Assembly (NCBI RefSeq): GCF_003334385.1
Contig: NZ_QOWN01000074.1
Reading direction: 5' to 3' (one strand)
Source: Escherichia coli
GTDB taxonomy: Bacteria > Pseudomonadota > Gammaproteobacteria > Enterobacterales > Enterobacteriaceae
DNA: 7,017 bases
Shown: positions 56-7,017 of the stretch, piece by piece
Layout: each line of letters opens with the position of its first letter
How positions within the stretch are numbered: the stretch's first letter is position 1
The notes under the pieces: generated by a model
What the model saw: the letters and a program-made list of their open reading frames with translations, nothing else
What the model was told of the DNA's origin: nothing
Database searches by the model: none
Position numbers and translations under genes: made by a program

Positions 56-253
56 TCACCGGTTCTGGTGCTGAAGCTGCAGTTGGCGCAGGGTACGGAT
101 ATCCTCTCTGGCCTGTTCGATACAGGGCAACAGTGCTGCTGAATCCGTTTTATCCTCATTGTTGTCAAAGATAATTCCCGATTCGCAGTCGATATTGTCC
201 TGCAGCCACGCAATCAGAATATCCAGTGCGGTTTCCGTGGTTAATGATTTCAT
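56..253 (-). CDS. DUF957-like small protein (about 65 aa), last gene of the CbtA/CbeA-associated module
   Basis: Track ORF 56..298 (-). Protein from the internal Met (MKSLTTETALDILIAWLQDNIDCESGIIFDNNEDKTD...) matches my memory of small DUF957 proteins found downstream of cbtA-type loci. Start placed at ATG 251-253 because an AGGAA Shine-Dalgarno-like motif lies about 5 nt upstream and the longer form (start 298) would overlap the upstream gene by 34 nt. Stop TGA at 56-58. Confidence 0.7.
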   Translation of the reverse strand: MKSLTTETALDILIAWLQDNIDCESGIIFDNNEDKTDSAALLPCIEQAREDIRTLRQLQLQHQNR

Positions 254-264
254 GTTGTTCCTGG

Positions 265-753
265 TTACCAGTTGAAAGTGGGTAAACCCGGCAGGCATTC
301 AGCGCTGGCATCCAGATGAATGAGACTGACGCCATAACGTCGGGTAAGTGTGATAACCAGACGACGGAACGTTTTTGACAGCCCCAGGCGTTTAAGCCGC
401 AGAACCGGATATGACCACGCATCGGTACGTAACAGATATCCGCTACCTGTGAAATGAATCCATTCTGATTCACCAACGTCACTGGTCTGATGCGACAGCG
501 AGTACAGCCAGGCGTTATCCTTTTCCGTGATATGTGCGGTACTGCAGCGTATGCCGGCAAGGGTTGCAAACGGTGGTAGTGTGCAGGTTGACTGTTGGTC
601 GGATTCCTCCACCACGCGGAGTGAATAACCGTTTTCAGCGACCTTGTTAATCAGTTCAGTGAGATTAACACCATCGACGTCAACGACAATTCGCCCCATG
701 TTCAGTGCCTGCACATTAATTCTGTCGGCTTCCAGCATCAGGGAAAGTTTCAT
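265..753 (-). CDS. DUF5983-like hypothetical protein (162 aa), encoded immediately downstream of the CbtA-family toxin
   Basis: Track ORF 265..753 (-), [29 protein letters not shown]... Its ATG (751-753) overlaps the toxin stop TGA (750-752) as ATGA, implying translational coupling. Position and size match the gene usually following cbtA paralogs. Family name is from memory. Confidence 0.75.
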
Positions 754-1124
754 CGTTTCTCCGGATGCTTACCCAGGGTAATGTTATTTACCGTTCTGTA
801 ATTGTCGCGGGTCATCAGGCCGGTCGCCCGGCGAGCCCGGAGGATATCAATACTGTTTATTAACTGAGAGCGGGGACAAGTGCTGAATCCCGGCTGGTCG
901 GTACGCACCAGCGCGTATTTTTCCACGAGAAAATTCACCGCATCACACAGTGAAATGCCAGCTTCAATATGCTGCTCAATCACACGTTCATCGGCGAACG
1001 GTGTGTCATTCAGTGTAAGGCCGTAATGCTGGCCCAGTAGTCGGGAGAGCAGAGTCTGCCAGATGGTGACGGGAGACGGGCAGCTCGATGCCTCCCGTAC
1101 GTGTGTATCGGGTAATGTTTTCAT
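750..1124 (-). CDS. cbtA: CbtA-family toxin (YeeV/YkfI/YpjF paralog group; type IV TA toxin that inhibits FtsZ/MreB polymerisation), 124 aa
   Basis: Track ORF 750..1124 (-). Protein MKTLP...[64 protein letters not shown]...[17 protein letters not shown] is near-identical over most of its length to E. coli K-12 YeeV/CbtA as I recall it. Shine-Dalgarno-like AGGAAA about 11 nt upstream of the ATG. I cannot tell which paralog it is, so the symbol is a family-level label. Confidence 0.92.
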
Positions 1125-1213: not shown

Positions 1214-1582
1214 TTACTTTTTCGTTTCGGGCGTCGGATAAACAGCCAGATAAACGTAACCACCGCTACCGAGAGTGTCAGCTTTGCAGGTCAGACCTTT
1301 TGCATACAGCGTGACGGTATGCTGATGGCGGGGATTCAGTTCACCGCTGGTGAGCATGAGTTCCAGTTGTTTCATCAGCAGCGGAAAGGCCTGGTCCAGG
1401 TGGTACGCATCTGCATCGCTGAACAGGCCTCTGATACCGGCGCGGTCGGCAAGGTAATGCAGGCGGTTACCCTCCTGCACCAGACGGGCGCCGAAACAGG
1501 GCGTCACTGTGCAGGGTAGTCCCCACCAGGGATGGTCGTCATTGTCATCGGGATGCGTTGTCCCGGAAAGTGTGTCTGACAC
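1214..1582 (-). CDS. cbeA: CbeA-family antitoxin (YeeU/YafW/YfjZ paralog group), 122 aa, GTG start
   Basis: Within track ORF 1214..1690 (-). Sequence from [52 protein letters not shown]...[31 protein letters not shown] matches K-12 YeeU/CbeA as I recall it (K-12 begins MSDTLPGTT). The GTG at 1580-1582 aligns to the K-12 start and has a GAGGA Shine-Dalgarno about 7 nt upstream. The in-frame ATG at 1688-1690 (158-aa form) lacks a convincing RBS. An 89-bp spacer separates it from the toxin gene. Confidence 0.88.
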
Positions 1583-1744: not shown

Positions 1745-1966
1745 TCAGTTCAGGGTGACGCTCATCAGCCGGACATACGGACCAAAACTGTCCTTACGGC
1801 GTTCTGCAAACACGGCCAGCACACCGGGAATATCCTGCACTTCACGACCGGTATACGCTTCAGCACTGCCGTGCCAGCGGTATTTGCCGGTACAGAACGG
1901 AAAAAGACGGGATGCCGGATGCTGACGGTGAATACGCATGGCTTCGCCACGGGTGATGATTTTCAT
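1745..1966 (-). CDS. DUF987 small protein (YeeT/YkfH/YpjJ family), 73 aa
   Basis: Track ORF 1745..1966 (-), MKIITRGEAMRIHRQHPASRLFPFCTGKYRWHGSAEAYTGREVQDIPGVLAVFAERRKDSFGPYVRLMSVTLN. Matches my memory of YeeT-type proteins and sits between the radC-like gene and the antitoxin as in K-12 cryptic prophages. AGAGG motif about 10 nt upstream of the ATG. Confidence 0.85.
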   Translation of the reverse strand: MKIITRGEAMRIHRQHPASRLFPFCTGKYRWHGSAEAYTGREVQDIPGVLAVFAERRKDSFGPYVRLMSVTLN

Positions 1967-2028: not shown

Positions 2029-2505
2029 TTAAAGCAGACCATGTTCGGCAAAGGAGAAAACCTGGCTGCCACCGATTATCAGATGGTCCGGCACCCGGAT
2101 ATCCACCAGGCCCAGTGCCTGTACCAGACGTTCCGTGATAAGGCGGTCTGCCTTGCTGGGTGTGACTTCACCGGACGGGTGATTGTGTGCCAGCACCACA
2201 GCAGCGGCATTGTGATACAGGGCGCGTTTAATCACTTCCCGGGGATGGACTTCCGTGCGGTTGATGGTGCCGGTGAAGAGGGTTTCACCGGCAATCAGCT
2301 GATTCTGGTTGTTCAGATACAGCACCCGGAACTCTTCACGCTCCAGTCCCGCCATGTTCAGAATCAGCCATTCCCGTGCCGCATGCGTGGAGGTGAAGGC
2401 CACGCCGGGTTCATGAAGATGGCGGTCCAGGGTTTTCAGGGCCCGCTGAATGAGGCTGCGCTCGCCGGGCGTCATGTTTCCGGGCAGAAAGGAAAGCTGT
2501 TGCAT
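2029..2505 (-). CDS. RadC-like JAB/JAMM-domain protein (YeeS/YkfG/YfjY family), 158 aa
   Basis: Track ORF 2029..2520 (-). Contains the JAMM metal-binding signature ...AAVVLAHNHPSGEVTPSKADRLIT... (H-x-H-P-S-G ... D), intact. Start chosen at the second ATG (2503-2505, MQQLSFLPG...) because GGAGA lies about 9 nt upstream and the resulting length matches K-12 paralogs. The first ATG (2518-2520) directly abuts the upstream stop and is an alternative. Confidence 0.88.
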   Translation of the reverse strand: MQQLSFLPGNMTPGERSLIQRALKTLDRHLHEPGVAFTSTHAAREWLILNMAGLEREEFRVLYLNNQNQLIAGETLFTGTINRTEVHPREVIKRALYHNAAAVVLAHNHPSGEVTPSKADRLITERLVQALGLVDIRVPDHLIIGGSQVFSFAEHGLL

Positions 2506-2520
2506 TGTACTTCTCTCCAT

Positions 2521-3006
2521 TCAGTCGATGATGCGCATAATGGCGCTGCATTCCGGATGCTGCAGGGCGTAATCCCGCAGCCGGTAATAATGGACCGTCA
2601 TGGCATAACACTCCGTACGACAGGCATGATGACTGTACGTCATCAGACAGGCAGCAATGCCGGCAGCTTCCGGACTCATTTCAGCGCGGTTACCGTTCAT
2701 GGCATTGAACAGTACCCATGTTTCGTCATCATCGTCATCCGGTTCGGGTGCCATAAATGCCCCGCCGTTGTTCAGGGTGTACAGATTCCAGATACCACCG
2801 CAGTAGTCTTCACACAGACGGTCCATCCAGCCGAAGACACGGGGCTCCAGGGTCACCCACTGTGGAATGAGGCCAAAGTGCTGCGGCCAGAAGCTGATGC
2901 GCTGTTCATCAGGGACTATGGTGGCAACCAACTGAGGCTGGTCATTCCCTGATGCAGCGGTTACGGAAACAGAAGATGTGGTGGAATTATGTGAAATGGT
3001 TTTCAT
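2521..3006 (-). CDS. Antirestriction protein, ArdB/KlcA-like (YfjX/YafX family), 161 aa
   Basis: Track ORF 2521..3006 (-), with AAGGAG Shine-Dalgarno 8 nt upstream of the ATG. Contains an acidic run PEPDDDDDETW and the motif FGWMDRLCEDYCGGIWNLYTLNNGGAFMAPE that I associate with this family. Sits immediately upstream of the radC-like gene, as antirestriction genes do in CP4-type islands. Family call is from memory and gene order. Confidence 0.75.
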   Translation of the reverse strand: MKTISHNSTTSSVSVTAASGNDQPQLVATIVPDEQRISFWPQHFGLIPQWVTLEPRVFGWMDRLCEDYCGGIWNLYTLNNGGAFMAPEPDDDDDETWVLFNAMNGNRAEMSPEAAGIAACLMTYSHHACRTECYAMTVHYYRLRDYALQHPECSAIMRIID

Positions 3007-3060: not shown

Positions 3061-3879
3061 TCAGCGCAGGCTCTCCAGCAGGGTTTCCGCCATCACCCAC
3101 AATGCGCGGTTGAGCTTAATGTCAGTGTCAATGCTGTGAATGGCACGGGTATGGATACGTTTTCCTTTAGCGCTGCGACCTGAAATTCCGCCTTTCAGCA
3201 TATTCTCCTGAATGGTCTGATAAGCACTCCACAGGTCCTTACCGTAATCCTCCCGGCGTCGTGGCGTCAGAATGTCGGCGGTGGTGACGGGCTGATGTTC
3301 GTCACCATAACGGTAAGTCAGTGCCGCCTGTGCCAGCGCCTGGCGTGCCGGTGGCGGCAGAATCAGCGACTGCATGGCATCACGCTTTTCCTCAATCCGG
3401 TCAAACACGCCCACCACCTTGTAAGCCCCTTCAATGACTCTGTCCACCACATTTCCCCGGTGCGGAACACGCACTTCCCCCAGAGACTGACCACAGACGC
3501 ATCCGTTCTGGCAGACGAACCTGAAGTAACCCGGCAGCATCTGGTAGCTGGAGGTACCGTCATGAGAGTTGAGCAGAATAATTTCAGGGACATGTTCTCC
3601 GTTTATCTCTCCGGCCCGCCGCAGACGCAGCATGTGTTTTGTGTATCCCCGGCGGCCCGGGTCGCGCACACGGGTCTGGCAGGCGAAGAATGGCTGAAAG
3701 CCTTCCCGCTGCAGGCTTTCCAGTACGGTGATGGTGGGGATGTACGTATAGTTCTGGCTTCGGGACGTGTGTTTATCTTCCCCGAAAATCCCCGGCACAT
3801 AGTGCATCAGTTCTTCGTGTGTCAGCGGACGGTCACGGCGTATCTGGTTCGCATAACCAAAACGACTGGCTAGTCGCAT
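3061..3879 (-). CDS. DUF932 domain protein (YfjQ/YafZ family), 272 aa
   Basis: Track ORF 3061..3879 (-), MRLASRFGYANQIRRDRPLTHEELMHYVPGIFGEDKH...SHDGTSSYQMLPG...KLNRALWVMAETLLESLR. Closely resembles K-12 YafZ/YfjQ as I recall them. Strong AAGGAG Shine-Dalgarno 5-6 nt upstream of the ATG at 3877-3879. Stop TGA at 3061-3063. Confidence 0.85.
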   Translation of the reverse strand: MRLASRFGYANQIRRDRPLTHEELMHYVPGIFGEDKHTSRSQNYTYIPTITVLESLQREGFQPFFACQTRVRDPGRRGYTKHMLRLRRAGEINGEHVPEIILLNSHDGTSSYQMLPGYFRFVCQNGCVCGQSLGEVRVPHRGNVVDRVIEGAYKVVGVFDRIEEKRDAMQSLILPPPARQALAQAALTYRYGDEHQPVTTADILTPRRREDYGKDLWSAYQTIQENMLKGGISGRSAKGKRIHTRAIHSIDTDIKLNRALWVMAETLLESLR

Positions 3880-3916: not shown

Positions 3917-3955
3917 AATAAATGAAAAAGCCACGTCTCCCGGAGAAGACGCGGC
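3917..3955 (-). terminator. Rho-independent terminator downstream of the DUF905 gene
   Basis: On the minus strand: GCCGCGTCT-TCTCCGGG-AGACGTGGC (9-bp stem with one G.U pair, plus-strand 3930-3955) followed by TTTTTCATTTATT (plus-strand 3917-3929). Lies in the intergenic region between the DUF905 stop (3979) and the DUF932 start (3879). Confidence 0.6.
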
Positions 3956-3978
3956 CTGATGGGTGAAATGAATGACGT

Positions 3979-4212
3979 TTATTGTCTGAGAAGACCGTCA
4001 CTGGCGAGCCGCGTATTAAGCACCTTTCCGGCATCGGGTTCAGAATTCCGGCAGCGCCAGCGTCGCTGACCTTCCGCGTTGCGGATAACCCGACGGAAAT
4101 GCATTCCCGGGTCATCCTGGATAAACACATTGCGGTAAGCGGTTATGACAGCAACCGCCTGCCCGTATGAGAAAGATCCTTCAGCCAGGACATACTCTGT
4201 GTAACCCGGCAT
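3979..4212 (-). CDS. DUF905-like small protein (YkfF-like), 77 aa
   Basis: Track ORF 3979..4212 (-). Motif [29 protein letters not shown] resembles the conserved core I recall for DUF905 proteins in K-12 cryptic prophages. AGGAG Shine-Dalgarno about 9 nt upstream of the ATG. Flanked by terminators on both sides. Confidence 0.72.
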
Positions 4213-4225
4213 ATCTGTTTTCTCC

Positions 4226-4266
4226 TGATAAATAAAAAGCCTCTGCCACGCGTTGTGACAGAGGCT
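4226..4266 (-). terminator. Rho-independent terminator downstream of the signal-peptide protein gene
   Basis: On the minus strand: AGCCTCTG-t-CAC-aacgc-GTG-g-CAGAGGCT (plus-strand 4238-4266), a GC-rich stem of 8+3 bp, followed by TTTTATTTATCA (plus-strand 4226-4237). Located 25 nt after the stop of the 4291..4746 gene and 25 nt before the DUF905 start. Confidence 0.65.
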
Positions 4267-4290: not shown

Positions 4291-4746
4291 TCAGTTAACG
4301 TTTTTTCCGGAAACGGTAATCAGCAGTGGATGGTAGTCCTGGGGATTGAAAACCGATAACGGCAGACTGACACGATGGCCGTTACTTTCTTCAGTTGCTT
4401 TGATGATTTCGGTTGTGGCGACATTTTCCACGCACTCCGTTTCCAGAAATGCGTCTGTGGTTCGCGTGGCATTACTGTCACCAAAAGCTTCCGTTTCCAT
4501 TTTTCTGGTCACCAGCGTCTGACCATATTTGTCTTTGAGTTGCAGAGTGATGGTGAGGGGGCCAAATCCTTCATCGTTTCCGCCATTATCCAGCCGGAAC
4601 TGGTAAGCACAAATATTTCCCGGGAGCCATATCGTATCTGTATTGCGTATACTGATGTAACGTTGATCCTGTGCCCGGAGTGGGGCAGACCACGTTAACC
4701 CCAGAATGAAGGCGGTAATCATGCAGGTTTTGAACAGGTGAATCAT
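4291..4746 (-). CDS. Small secreted/periplasmic protein of unknown function, 151 aa, with predicted Sec signal peptide
   Basis: Track ORF 4291..4746 (-). N-terminus MIHLFKTCMITAFILGLTWSAPLRA/QDQ has a typical n-h-c signal peptide with an AxA-like cleavage site and no lipobox. Mature part has two Cys (possible disulfide). GAGAGG Shine-Dalgarno about 8 nt upstream of the ATG. Lies 75 bp downstream of the large membrane protein gene with no terminator between them. I recognise no family. Confidence 0.65.
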   Translation of the reverse strand: MIHLFKTCMITAFILGLTWSAPLRAQDQRYISIRNTDTIWLPGNICAYQFRLDNGGNDEGFGPLTITLQLKDKYGQTLVTRKMETEAFGDSNATRTTDAFLETECVENVATTEIIKATEESNGHRVSLPLSVFNPQDYHPLLITVSGKNVN

Positions 4747-4821: not shown

Positions 4822-7017
4822 TTATGCCGGTAACTCCGGGGGTAATGCTTCTTCCAGTCGGTTAACCATATTGCCGAGATGGGATGCATCATATTCCATG
4901 ACGGGGCGTTGCCTGATGATACTGACCACCAGTGGTTTGATTAACATATTGGTCGCGGCCCGTTGTTGTATACCGGCGGCGAAAATGATCTCCAGAGCAT
5001 TCTGATCGATAACACGGGCCAGATTCTCGTTCAGATTTTCAATCTCATGTCCGGTCAGCAGGAAACTGCCGGCAAGCCATGTCACCTGCTCCTGAATCAT
5101 TGCCAGAATTTTGACGCGATCTTCTTCAACCAGCGCTCCGGCAATTTTTCCTGATACAGCGGAGGCAATCATTCCCCCCAGAACACCGCCAACCACACGC
5201 CCTGTCAGTGCACCAAATGGTCCCAGTGGACTGAACAGTATTCCGCCCGCCACTGACCCGACAGCACCACCTGCCACACCGGAAGATGCCACGGCAAGAT
5301 TCCTGATGAACTGCGTACCGGAGATCCGTCCCCGCAACATTTTGATCATGTCAGGGCCGGTTGTGACAGCTACCAGTGCCAGAGATGTCACCAGCGTACC
5401 CTTCATTACTTTGTTCAGGGCACTGATATTTCCTGCACCGTTCCCCTTCTGAAGAGCCAGTCGGACAGTCGGGCTGGCAGTCGAAAAATCAATGTGCTTC
5501 AGCATACCCTGAACAACACTGAGCCGGTGGAGTTGCTGGGTTGTGACGTAGACAGCCAGTGTGCGGGTGAAGGTTTTTCCTGCCTGGACAGCAGCTGTCT
5601 GCAGGGCAGCATCGCGATCGCCGGTGCTGAGCCAGAAGACCGATGCCGTCAGGGCAAAACTGATCCCTCCGGCCGCCAGACTGACAACCGAACCCTCGGC
5701 AATATCATAAGTGACCGATTCGATGGTCCCGAACCGGGTGATATTACGGGCCTGAGTATAAGTCAGATGTCCCCGACGAATCAGCCGGGACGCTTCTGCG
5801 GGATCGGTTACACCGGGTACTTTACCTTCGCGGATCTTATTCCTCATGGTTTCAACAGCGCCGGCATACTGATCACGGGGGACTTCCAGTTGCATGGGGC
5901 CATTATTTCCCATGTAACGATACTGTCCGTTTTGTCCGTCGAATGCCGCACCGACGCTACGGGCTGCAGTTGAACAATATTTCGTCTGGATTTCTGTTCC
6001 GCTGACCAGTCTGTCTGCTCCATTTCTGGCATTATTATCACCGAGGATCCGTGCGTTTTTCAGACGGACTCTGTCGACAATATGGTTTCCCCGTTCAGCG
6101 GCAAACCCATGTCCCTGCCCTCCGGAAGCAAACATTTTCTCATTTGTACTCCAGGTTTCCGGCAGTTTCATGAGAATCAGACCATTCGCCGTTGCATCGG
6201 AAATAAAGCTGTTGTAAGGGCGTTCATAAATTTCCTGACACAGTGTTTCTGTTTCGCGACAAAGAGAGGAGCAGTACCATTCCGGATCCGGCTTATGATT
6301 TTCCGGGGCATGATGTACTTCTGTCAGCCCGCAGGAGGCACAGATACGAAGCTCATCCACGTGATGGAATGATACAAAACGGCGACCTTCTGAAAAGGGA
6401 TACCAGTCACCGCCGTCCAGGCAACGATCGAGAAAATCGTCATTCGCTTCCGGTGATAAATTCAGGCGGTTCCGGAAGAGCGTTTTCAGTTCATCAGGTG
6501 TGAATGACAGGTTCTCTTTCAACTGTTCGTTAAACCCTGCCATGTTTCTTTCATACCAGGCATTGTTCAGTAACCAGTTTCCGTCTGCCAGTTCAAATTC
6601 CCTCAGCTCTCCCCGGGAAATCCGTTGAGAAATGAGCGTCAGCCAGATGCGCTCCGTCAGTGAGTCAGGAAGGCTGTAATCGTTTTGCAAACTGGTCAGC
6701 CACGATTTACTGTTGAGCACCGGTTGTTCTTCCAGTGTCTGGCTGATGGCACAGGTCAGTTTTTTCAGCGCCTGGATCTGGCTGGCCGCCCATAGCAGCG
6801 TCACTAATGCAGCCAGCCAGTACAACAACCCGCCCCACCACATCAGTGACGGTGAAATATCGTACTGTAACGCGATCAATGGTGCGCATGCAGAACACGC
6901 CATAAGGAAAAAGGCAGTATAAAAACAGCAGTAATACCCGTTAATTTCCTTGCTGATATCTTCTGGTGTGATCCCGTTCTGCTGAATGTTTTTGATCTGC
7001 AGGGGAACAGCCAGCAG
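4822..7017 (-). CDS. Large membrane protein of unknown function, 5'-truncated at the window edge (>=731 codons visible)
   Basis: Track ORF 4822..6903 (-) of 693 aa; the same frame stays open from 6904 to 7017 by my manual translation (...LLAVPLQIKNIQQNGITPEDISKEINGYYCCFYTAFFL-MACSAC...), so the true start is outside the window. Predicted N-terminal hydrophobic helices (6772..6843 and upstream). Cys cluster C-x2-C...C-x3-C...C at about 6238..6342. Further hydrophobic segments and a glycine-zipper-rich stretch SGVAGGAVGSVAGGILFSPLGPFGALTGRVVGGVLGGMIASAVSGKIAG at about 5134..5301. Stop TAA at 4822-4824. Occupies the slot held by YeeR/YfjW-type membrane proteins or Ag43 in K-12 islands, but I cannot confirm homology to those. 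Confidence 0.7.
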   Translation of the reverse strand: MLAVPLQIKNIQQNGITPEDISKEINGYYCCFYTAFFLMACSACAPLIALQYDISPSLMWWGGLLYWLAALVTLLWAASQIQALKKLTCAISQTLEEQPVLNSKSWLTSLQNDYSLPDSLTERIWLTLISQRISRGELREFELADGNWLLNNAWYERNMAGFNEQLKENLSFTPDELKTLFRNRLNLSPEANDDFLDRCLDGGDWYPFSEGRRFVSFHHVDELRICASCGLTEVHHAPENHKPDPEWYCSSLCRETETLCQEIYERPYNSFISDATANGLILMKLPETWSTNEKMFASGGQGHGFAAERGNHIVDRVRLKNARILGDNNARNGADRLVSGTEIQTKYCSTAARSVGAAFDGQNGQYRYMGNNGPMQLEVPRDQYAGAVETMRNKIREGKVPGVTDPAEASRLIRRGHLTYTQARNITRFGTIESVTYDIAEGSVVSLAAGGISFALTASVFWLSTGDRDAALQTAAVQAGKTFTRTLAVYVTTQQLHRLSVVQGMLKHIDFSTASPTVRLALQKGNGAGNISALNKVMKGTLVTSLALVAVTTGPDMIKMLRGRISGTQFIRNLAVASSGVAGGAVGSVAGGILFSPLGPFGALTGRVVGGVLGGMIASAVSGKIAGALVEEDRVKILAMIQEQVTWLAGSFLLTGHEIENLNENLARVIDQNALEIIFAAGIQQRAATNMLIKPLVVSIIRQRPVMEYDASHLGNMVNRLEEALPPELPA

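Follow-up and report, generated by a model that had tools for sequence, protein, structure and literature searches.

Overlapping cbtA and DUF5983 genes in an Escherichia coli accessory module: a conserved ATGA junction and probable translational coupling

Two gene junctions in a 7,017-nt stretch of Escherichia coli DNA (the whole stretch analysed, hereafter the window) raise the question of what contact between a stop and a start codon says about the translation and the function of neighbouring genes. At the first, the stop codon of a cbtA-family toxin gene and the start codon of a DUF5983 gene share the tetranucleotide ATGA; at the second, the stop codon of an antirestriction gene is directly followed by an in-frame ATG of a radC-like gene. 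In the preliminary description of the window both contacts were read as signs of co-translation, and the first also as a hint of a functional link between the toxin and DUF5983.

Gene content of the window and the ATGA junction

The window represents the accessory module that is conserved in CP4-44-type islands of E. coli, and all of its long open reading frames (ORFs) lie on the minus strand. It is 99.7% identical to chromosomal islands of many E. coli genomes, where the RefSeq gene set is identical and, according to the same annotation, Ag43 and a GTPase are found on one flank. The genes are, in minus-strand order:

4291-4746, minus strand: IrmA (Pfam).
3979-4212, minus strand: DUF905 (Pfam).
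3061-3879, minus strand: DUF932 (Pfam).
2521-3006, minus strand: antirestriction gene (PF03230; Pfam, PGAP), stop codon TGA at 2523-2521.
2029-2505, minus strand: RadC/JAB gene (Pfam), conserved start ATG at 2505-2503 preceded by GGAGAG at 2518-2513; 2029-2520 when counted from the first in-frame ATG.
1745-1966, minus strand: DUF987 (Pfam).
1214-1582, minus strand: cbeA/yeeU-family antitoxin gene (PF06154, E 3e-51), GTG start according to PGAP, 89-nt gap to cbtA.
750-1124, minus strand: cbtA-family toxin gene, 124 aa (PF06755, E 6.9e-60; PGAP, "TA system toxin CbtA family protein").
265-753, minus strand: DUF5983/YeeW-like gene, 162 aa; N domain PF25638 (E 1.3e-27), C domain PF19419 (E 6e-20).
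56-253, minus strand: DUF957 gene (name from PGAP/RefSeq only), 11 nt past the DUF5983 stop; spacer 254-264 with AGGAA.

The names given earlier to the CbtA toxin, DUF5983, antirestriction and RadC genes were borne out by Pfam. The genes of the toxin and antitoxin families are adjacent with the antitoxin first, as in CbtA/CbeA type IV toxin–antitoxin (TA) systems, and both domains of the DUF5983 (YeeW) family are matched by the 162-aa product. For the DUF957 gene no Pfam or NCBIfam match was found; the NCBIfam search of the window gave matches to RadC only, and the Rfam search of the window gave no RNA family. Strong intrinsic-terminator-like hairpins (minus strand, 3928-3957 and 4238-4266; stems of 13 and 12 bp followed by T runs) are positioned after DUF905 and after IrmA, and the transcription unit that contains both junctions therefore probably begins at DUF932 (3879). 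Upstream of IrmA, a large ORF (4822-6903, minus strand; 693 aa in the window) has as its EH41 counterpart a hypothetical protein annotated with 838 aa; its C-terminal half is hydrophobic and Gly/Ala-rich, and the Pfam search gave no significant match (best: C19orf12-like, E 0.022).

The features of the first junction are the following; the minus-strand sequence reads CCGGAGAAACGATGAAACTT.

750-753, minus strand: ATGA stop/start overlap, formed by the cbtA TGA (752-750) and the DUF5983 ATG (753-751); TCAT on the plus strand.
759-762, minus strand: Shine–Dalgarno (SD)-like GGAG inside the last cbtA codons, 5 nt upstream of the DUF5983 ATG.

Direct reading of the sequence and the PGAP annotation agree on the overlap, as described before, and zero intergenic space is left between the two genes. 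Reading back from the DUF5983 ATG, an in-frame TAA is reached after 18 nt and no start codon is passed, so that ATG 753-751 is the first possible start of this gene; the protein is conserved from Met1 on, the pattern MK(L/I)S(L/M)xxEAD...N..ALN being common across genera. The anti-SD duplex of GGAG (762-759) was calculated at -6.6 kcal/mol, and the SD thus lies within the 3' end of the upstream gene. A pattern scan near the junction revealed no promoter and one weak terminator-like match inside cbtA (954-934; 3 G-C pairs).

The overlap is not new: RefSeq already records it for thousands of E. coli genomes, among them K-12, and RefSeq/PGAP annotate it both in near-identical genomes and at K-12 cbtA/yeeW. 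The cbtA-DUF5983 segment has ~14,600 occurrences and was found in 5,056 of 5,426 complete E. coli genomes. The K-12 CP4-44 CbtA/CbeA (YeeV/YeeU) locus has the same families in the same order (cbeA, 89-nt gap, cbtA, ATGA, yeeW) with the same 4-nt overlap; it differs in that K-12 yeeW is truncated to a remnant of 64 aa, whereas the gene of the window is intact, with 162 aa and two domains.

Conservation of the overlap and translation of DUF5983

Among 2,987 unidirectional gene pairs of E. coli, no distance class is commoner than -4 (ATGA), and distances of -8 to +6 nt account for 24% of the pairs (PMC10666635). The nine junctions of the module comprise one at -4, the others being +78, +99, +54, +15, +62, +162, +89 and +11 nt; since this distance is more frequent in E. 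coli than any other, a single ATGA among nine does not exceed the genomic background. Tight operon junctions in bacteria take the form of a 4-nt ATGA overlap by default, and as it stands the finding matters little. What goes beyond chance is not the single ATGA but its conservation across genera and through changes of the start codon.

Homologous junctions (25) were compared: the window, six diverged copies from E. coli, one metagenomic contig, and 17 genome-collection loci (E. albertii, Mixta, Tenebrionibacter, Winslowiella, Cedecea, Erwinia, Rouxiella, Citrobacter-type and others), the non-Escherichia loci among the latter showing 55-66% protein identity. The 4-nt overlap of the toxin TGA with the DUF5983 start is kept in 22 of the 25, namely 19 with NTGA at the aligned start and 3 with ATGATGA, in which it is the upstream ATG that takes part in the overlap. 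The exceptions are L006, with a 10-nt overlap after an A-to-C change, and two Citrobacter-type loci (L020, L022) with a +13-nt spacer containing GGAG. The overlap is retained while the start codon varies: besides ATG, GTG occurs (Cedecea), as does TTG (Winslowiella, Erwinia, Rouxiella). Of the 25 junctions, 23 have an SD-like motif (<= -4.4 kcal/mol); the C-terminal tail of the toxin, which encodes it, is not conserved in amino-acid sequence. Among E. coli paralogues dN/dS of DUF5983 is 0.20-0.27, a value of purifying selection that marks it as a real gene. Stop and start being each under selection, the overlap is partly frozen by a double constraint, and its conservation is accordingly weaker evidence of selection on coupling than it looks. 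The Erwinia piriflorinigrans gene (L025, 4001-4504; TTG start, weak SD) carries in its N domain a 5-residue tandem duplication, DELIIDELIN.

The junction is rather likely to be an ordinary tight operon junction at which translation of DUF5983 is coupled to that of cbtA by termination-reinitiation. A ribosome terminating at the cbtA UGA would stay on the mRNA and would reinitiate, aided by the embedded SD, at the AUG one base upstream of the UGA, whereby DUF5983 synthesis would be tied to cbtA translation. Such coupling is sequential reinitiation by the terminating ribosome, for which the earlier label of co-translation is the wrong term. Four of the five native E. coli ATGA pairs tested were coupled (Huber et al. 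2019, PMC6728339), and the efficiency of reinitiation drops steeply as the intergenic distance grows (PMC10666635); with an overlap that is real and conserved, it is reasonable to suppose that DUF5983 is coupled as well. The cbtA/DUF5983 pair resembles the coupled E. coli ATGA pairs hyfH-hyfI, astD-astB, ydbH-ynbE and menD-menH (Huber et al. 2019, 2023) in being co-directional, in the 4-nt ATGA and in the SD within the upstream 3' end; unlike in those pairs, coupling is here inferred only, and no complex between the products is known.

The same arrangement could have arisen by genome compaction only, DUF5983 being initiated de novo at its own SD and ATGA persisting since mutation harms the stop or the start; this explanation is possible, though doubtful. 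The SD of the window is usable for that purpose in strength and distance, those of other E. coli copies are stronger (-9.5 to -12.1 kcal/mol), and one of the five pairs tested by Huber et al., bioBF, is an uncoupled ATGA pair (PMC6728339), although most of the pairs tested there are coupled. Loci L020 and L022 work with the +13-nt spacer, and altogether two lineages departed from the -4 arrangement with both genes retained, which counts against coupling. Initiation de novo is, on the other hand, hard to reconcile with loci L023 and L025, which keep the overlap and full-length DUF5983 ORFs (163 and 168 aa) despite TTG starts and a weak SD only (-3.5 kcal/mol); these two loci are the best comparative argument for reinitiation over de novo initiation.

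A further mechanism depends on the RNA structure predicted for the junction:

734-769, minus strand: predicted local hairpin, arms 734-742 and 761-769; the SD pairs with DUF5983 codons 3-6 and the AUG lies in the loop.

Were the DUF5983 SD hidden in this hairpin, ribosomes finishing cbtA would melt it and new ribosomes would bind. The probability of being unpaired is 0.18 for the SD region, the lowest of 11 module start sites, and pairings of the SD with codons 3-7 are also predicted in L008, L017, L018 and L028; however, RNAalifold on 15 diverged junctions gave no consensus structure, the z-score of the 141-nt fold is only -1.9, no such hairpin is predicted for the other E. coli copies (L002-L006), and pairing of a purine-rich SD with Leu-Ser-Leu codons can be incidental. 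Unmasking is thus improbable; a conserved SD-sequestering hairpin was rejected on the lack of a consensus and its absence from the predictions for the other E. coli copies, and the predicted hairpin 734-769 is better regarded as a feature specific to the window lineage than as the mechanism.

A programmed frameshift at the junction giving a CbtA-DUF5983 fusion protein can practically be dismissed, and was rejected: database proteins that carry the CbtA and DUF5983 domains together do exist (P0003, 279 aa, and a single UniProt entry that bioRxiv 10.64898/2026.06.09.728211 cites), but in-frame stops part the two frames in 25/25 loci, the window sequence has no slippery heptamer upstream of the cbtA stop, and P0003 occurs on a single contig, its sequence past ...NYRTV fitting a deletion that removes the in-frame TAA. 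The latter protein (ENA contig), in which a short deletion in the toxin tail takes out this TAA, is for its occurrence on that contig only ascribed to mutation or assembly error and not to a programmed event.

The antirestriction/RadC junction and the spacers of the module

The second junction reads GAC TGA ATG GAG AGA AGT ACA ATG CAA on the minus strand, TGA 2523-2521 abutting ATG 2520-2518.

2518-2520, minus strand: the RadC ORF's first in-frame ATG, directly after the antirestriction stop; without SD, confined to the window lineage, not the PGAP start; probably unused.

The abutment noted in the preliminary description is therefore there as a string of letters (2523-2518), but this ATG is probably not used as a start of translation. 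When 18 distinct antirestriction/RadC junctions were compared, the abutting ATG was found in three of them, all of the window lineage (L001, L005, L014), and was absent or out of frame in the remaining 15; all 18 have a spacer of 9-17 nt with an SD-like motif, followed by ATG (examples from elsewhere: CCGAAGGAGCAACAG, AAGGGGCCGGAATA, GGGAGGTCAGCC). The anti-SD duplex calculated for the first ATG (2520-2518) is +0.4 kcal/mol, that is, no SD; for the second ATG (2505-2503), with GGAGAG 7 nt upstream, it is -6.4 kcal/mol. The start that PGAP assigns to the JAB/RadC gene is, in every genome examined, the second ATG, 15 nt downstream of the first. With the abutting ATG lineage-specific and devoid of an SD, and the second ATG used by PGAP, the true junction is a 15-nt spacer with GGAGAG; the RadC-like gene most likely starts, by these comparisons, at 2505-2503, 15 nt past the antirestriction stop, and it is this position, not the ATG abutting the stop, that should be taken as its start.

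That the RadC-like protein starts at ATG 2520-2518 and is coupled to the antirestriction gene is very unlikely. This ATG is in frame and directly follows the TGA, and a distance of 0 nt would permit reinitiation; it is nevertheless missing from, or out of frame in, most of the junctions compared, it has no SD, PGAP picks the second ATG, and the extra residues MERST are confined to the window lineage. The coupling of the two genes formerly deduced from the abutment is thus not upheld, the conserved state being a spacer of 9-17 nt that holds its own SD, and the second junction rests on a coincidental ATG.

In E. coli, genes of polycistronic operons that are preceded by a short spacer with an SD are thought to be mostly or probably initiated independently (PMC10666635). 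With a 15-nt spacer and its own SD, RadC is probably initiated largely independently of the antirestriction gene. The spacers of the module, +15 for antirestriction/RadC (9-17 in relatives) and +11 for DUF5983/DUF957, are like the SD-containing spacers of +9 to +12 nt of E. coli polycistronic operons (PMC10666635), the RadC spacer of the window being slightly longer than this main peak.

Near the DUF957 start, some database DUF5983 proteins (P0041, P0058) carry a C-terminal extension, ...QSGNSQHEIINHGNSAGYSDY..., which is an alternative frame across this start and is similar to the tail of the mechanically called ORF 165-569 (window 165-298, minus strand). The extension may correspond to AntiFam ANF00264, discussed in bioRxiv 10.64898/2026.06.09.728211.

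DUF5983 as a putative partner of the toxin

The functional link between the toxin and DUF5983 that was earlier drawn from the overlap is weakened by the distribution of the DUF5983 family. For the complete two-domain protein the association with the toxin is close: of 21 such loci from the genome collection and metagenomes, 20 have a CbtA gene or its remnant immediately upstream, the sole exception being L027, with a gap of ~900 nt to CbtA. A survey of TA systems in E. coli lists CbtA/DUF5983 as a recurrent pair (mBio 2023, PMC10790755), and the arrangement of its "CbtA_toxin/DUF5983" pair, DUF5983 immediately downstream of CbtA, is that of the window; DUF5983 was put there under "partners (antitoxins)" by adjacency only (PMC10790755), and the pairing in the present loci likewise comes from gene position. 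Genes for subunits of heteromeric complexes show a statistical excess of short overlaps (PMC10666635).

The C domain is the conserved core of the family, and genes that consist of this domain only (DUF5983C) are found in contexts other than next to CbtA. Yersinia has the order RadC-DUF5983C-CbtA-CbeA, with a 7-nt overlap between the RadC stop and the DUF5983C ATG and a gap of 80 nt between DUF5983C and the toxin (L035, 3959-5081: ATG at 3968, RadC stop 3972-3974). In these Yersinia spp. loci (L033, L035, L037, L039) the toxin precedes the antitoxin, the reverse of the E. coli order. In Leminorella grimontii (L034, 3940-3960) the DUF5983C ATG (3956-3958) overlaps the TGA of a CbeA-like gene (3957-3959) as ATGA, with CGGAG 11 nt upstream; no CbtA toxin was found in this locus by tblastn, so that DUF5983C occupies the position of the toxin. 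DUF5983C overlaps a DUF3085 gene by 10 nt in Xenorhabdus, and follows a DUF1281 gene beside ArdC in Hafnia and Acerihabitans. On two plasmid-type contigs the DUF5983 C domain is encoded near DUF932 and IncFII RepA or a relaxase, without a TA pair; in these proteins (L009, 3001-3567; L010, 852-1421; 188-189 aa) the C domain is fused to a different N-terminal region, the neighbours are DUF932 and IncFII RepA or NikA/relaxase, and neither CbtA nor CbeA was found nearby. The loci with a C-domain DUF5983 and no CbtA are L009, L010, L034, L036 and L040.

Since C-domain-only genes overlap their upstream neighbour at its stop, whether this is RadC, CbeA or DUF3085, the overlap says little on a partnership of the toxin and DUF5983, and alone it should not be used as an argument for one. 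In the loci compared, the DUF5983 gene tends to overlap whatever gene comes before it, and it belongs to the general antirestriction-rich accessory arrays of mobile elements. Toxicity of CbtA-family proteins and its neutralisation were obtained from cloned TA genes without DUF5983, the constructs containing the two TA genes alone or the TA genes with upstream genes (PMC5371832, PMC6521040). The two-gene assays and the C-domain genes without CbtA do not agree with DUF5983 being a required third TA component; in K-12, moreover, yeeW is the remnant mentioned above. A literature search on yeeW/DUF5983 found no functional study. An AF2 model of CbtA-(GGGGS)6-DUF5983, built on a paired alignment of 16 rows, reached pLDDT 56.5 and pTM 0.36, a result of low confidence that counts neither way.

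It is unlikely that DUF5983/YeeW is a true third component of CbtA-type modules, made in fixed proportion by termination-reinitiation and acting on the toxin or its targets. As such a component DUF5983 may be, e.g., a direct binder or modulator of the toxin, unlike (reportedly) the type IV antitoxin CbeA, and the shuffled arrangements (CbeA-CbtA-DUF5983; RadC-DUF5983C-CbtA-CbeA in Yersinia; CbeA-ATGA-DUF5983C without CbtA in Leminorella) may represent the partner swapping typical of TA evolution. If DUF5983 does modulate CbtA, a widespread and much-copied E. coli TA family gains a third component.

Several loci deserve separate mention. Enterobacterales-type cbtA-DUF5983 modules (L012, L013, L015, L016, L021, L022, L028) were met on contigs labelled Collinsella, Lachnospiraceae or "Chryseobacterium sp. 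18061", those on the Collinsella and Lachnospiraceae contigs with 83-93% identity to the window protein; these labels are probably due to binning contamination or mislabelled assemblies. In E. coli O157:H7 TR01 (L004, 3018-4395) the antitoxin gene is cut by ISEc31, cbtA and DUF5983 being intact; in strain 13E0767 (L003, 2066-2926) cbtA and DUF5983 are both annotated as frameshifted.
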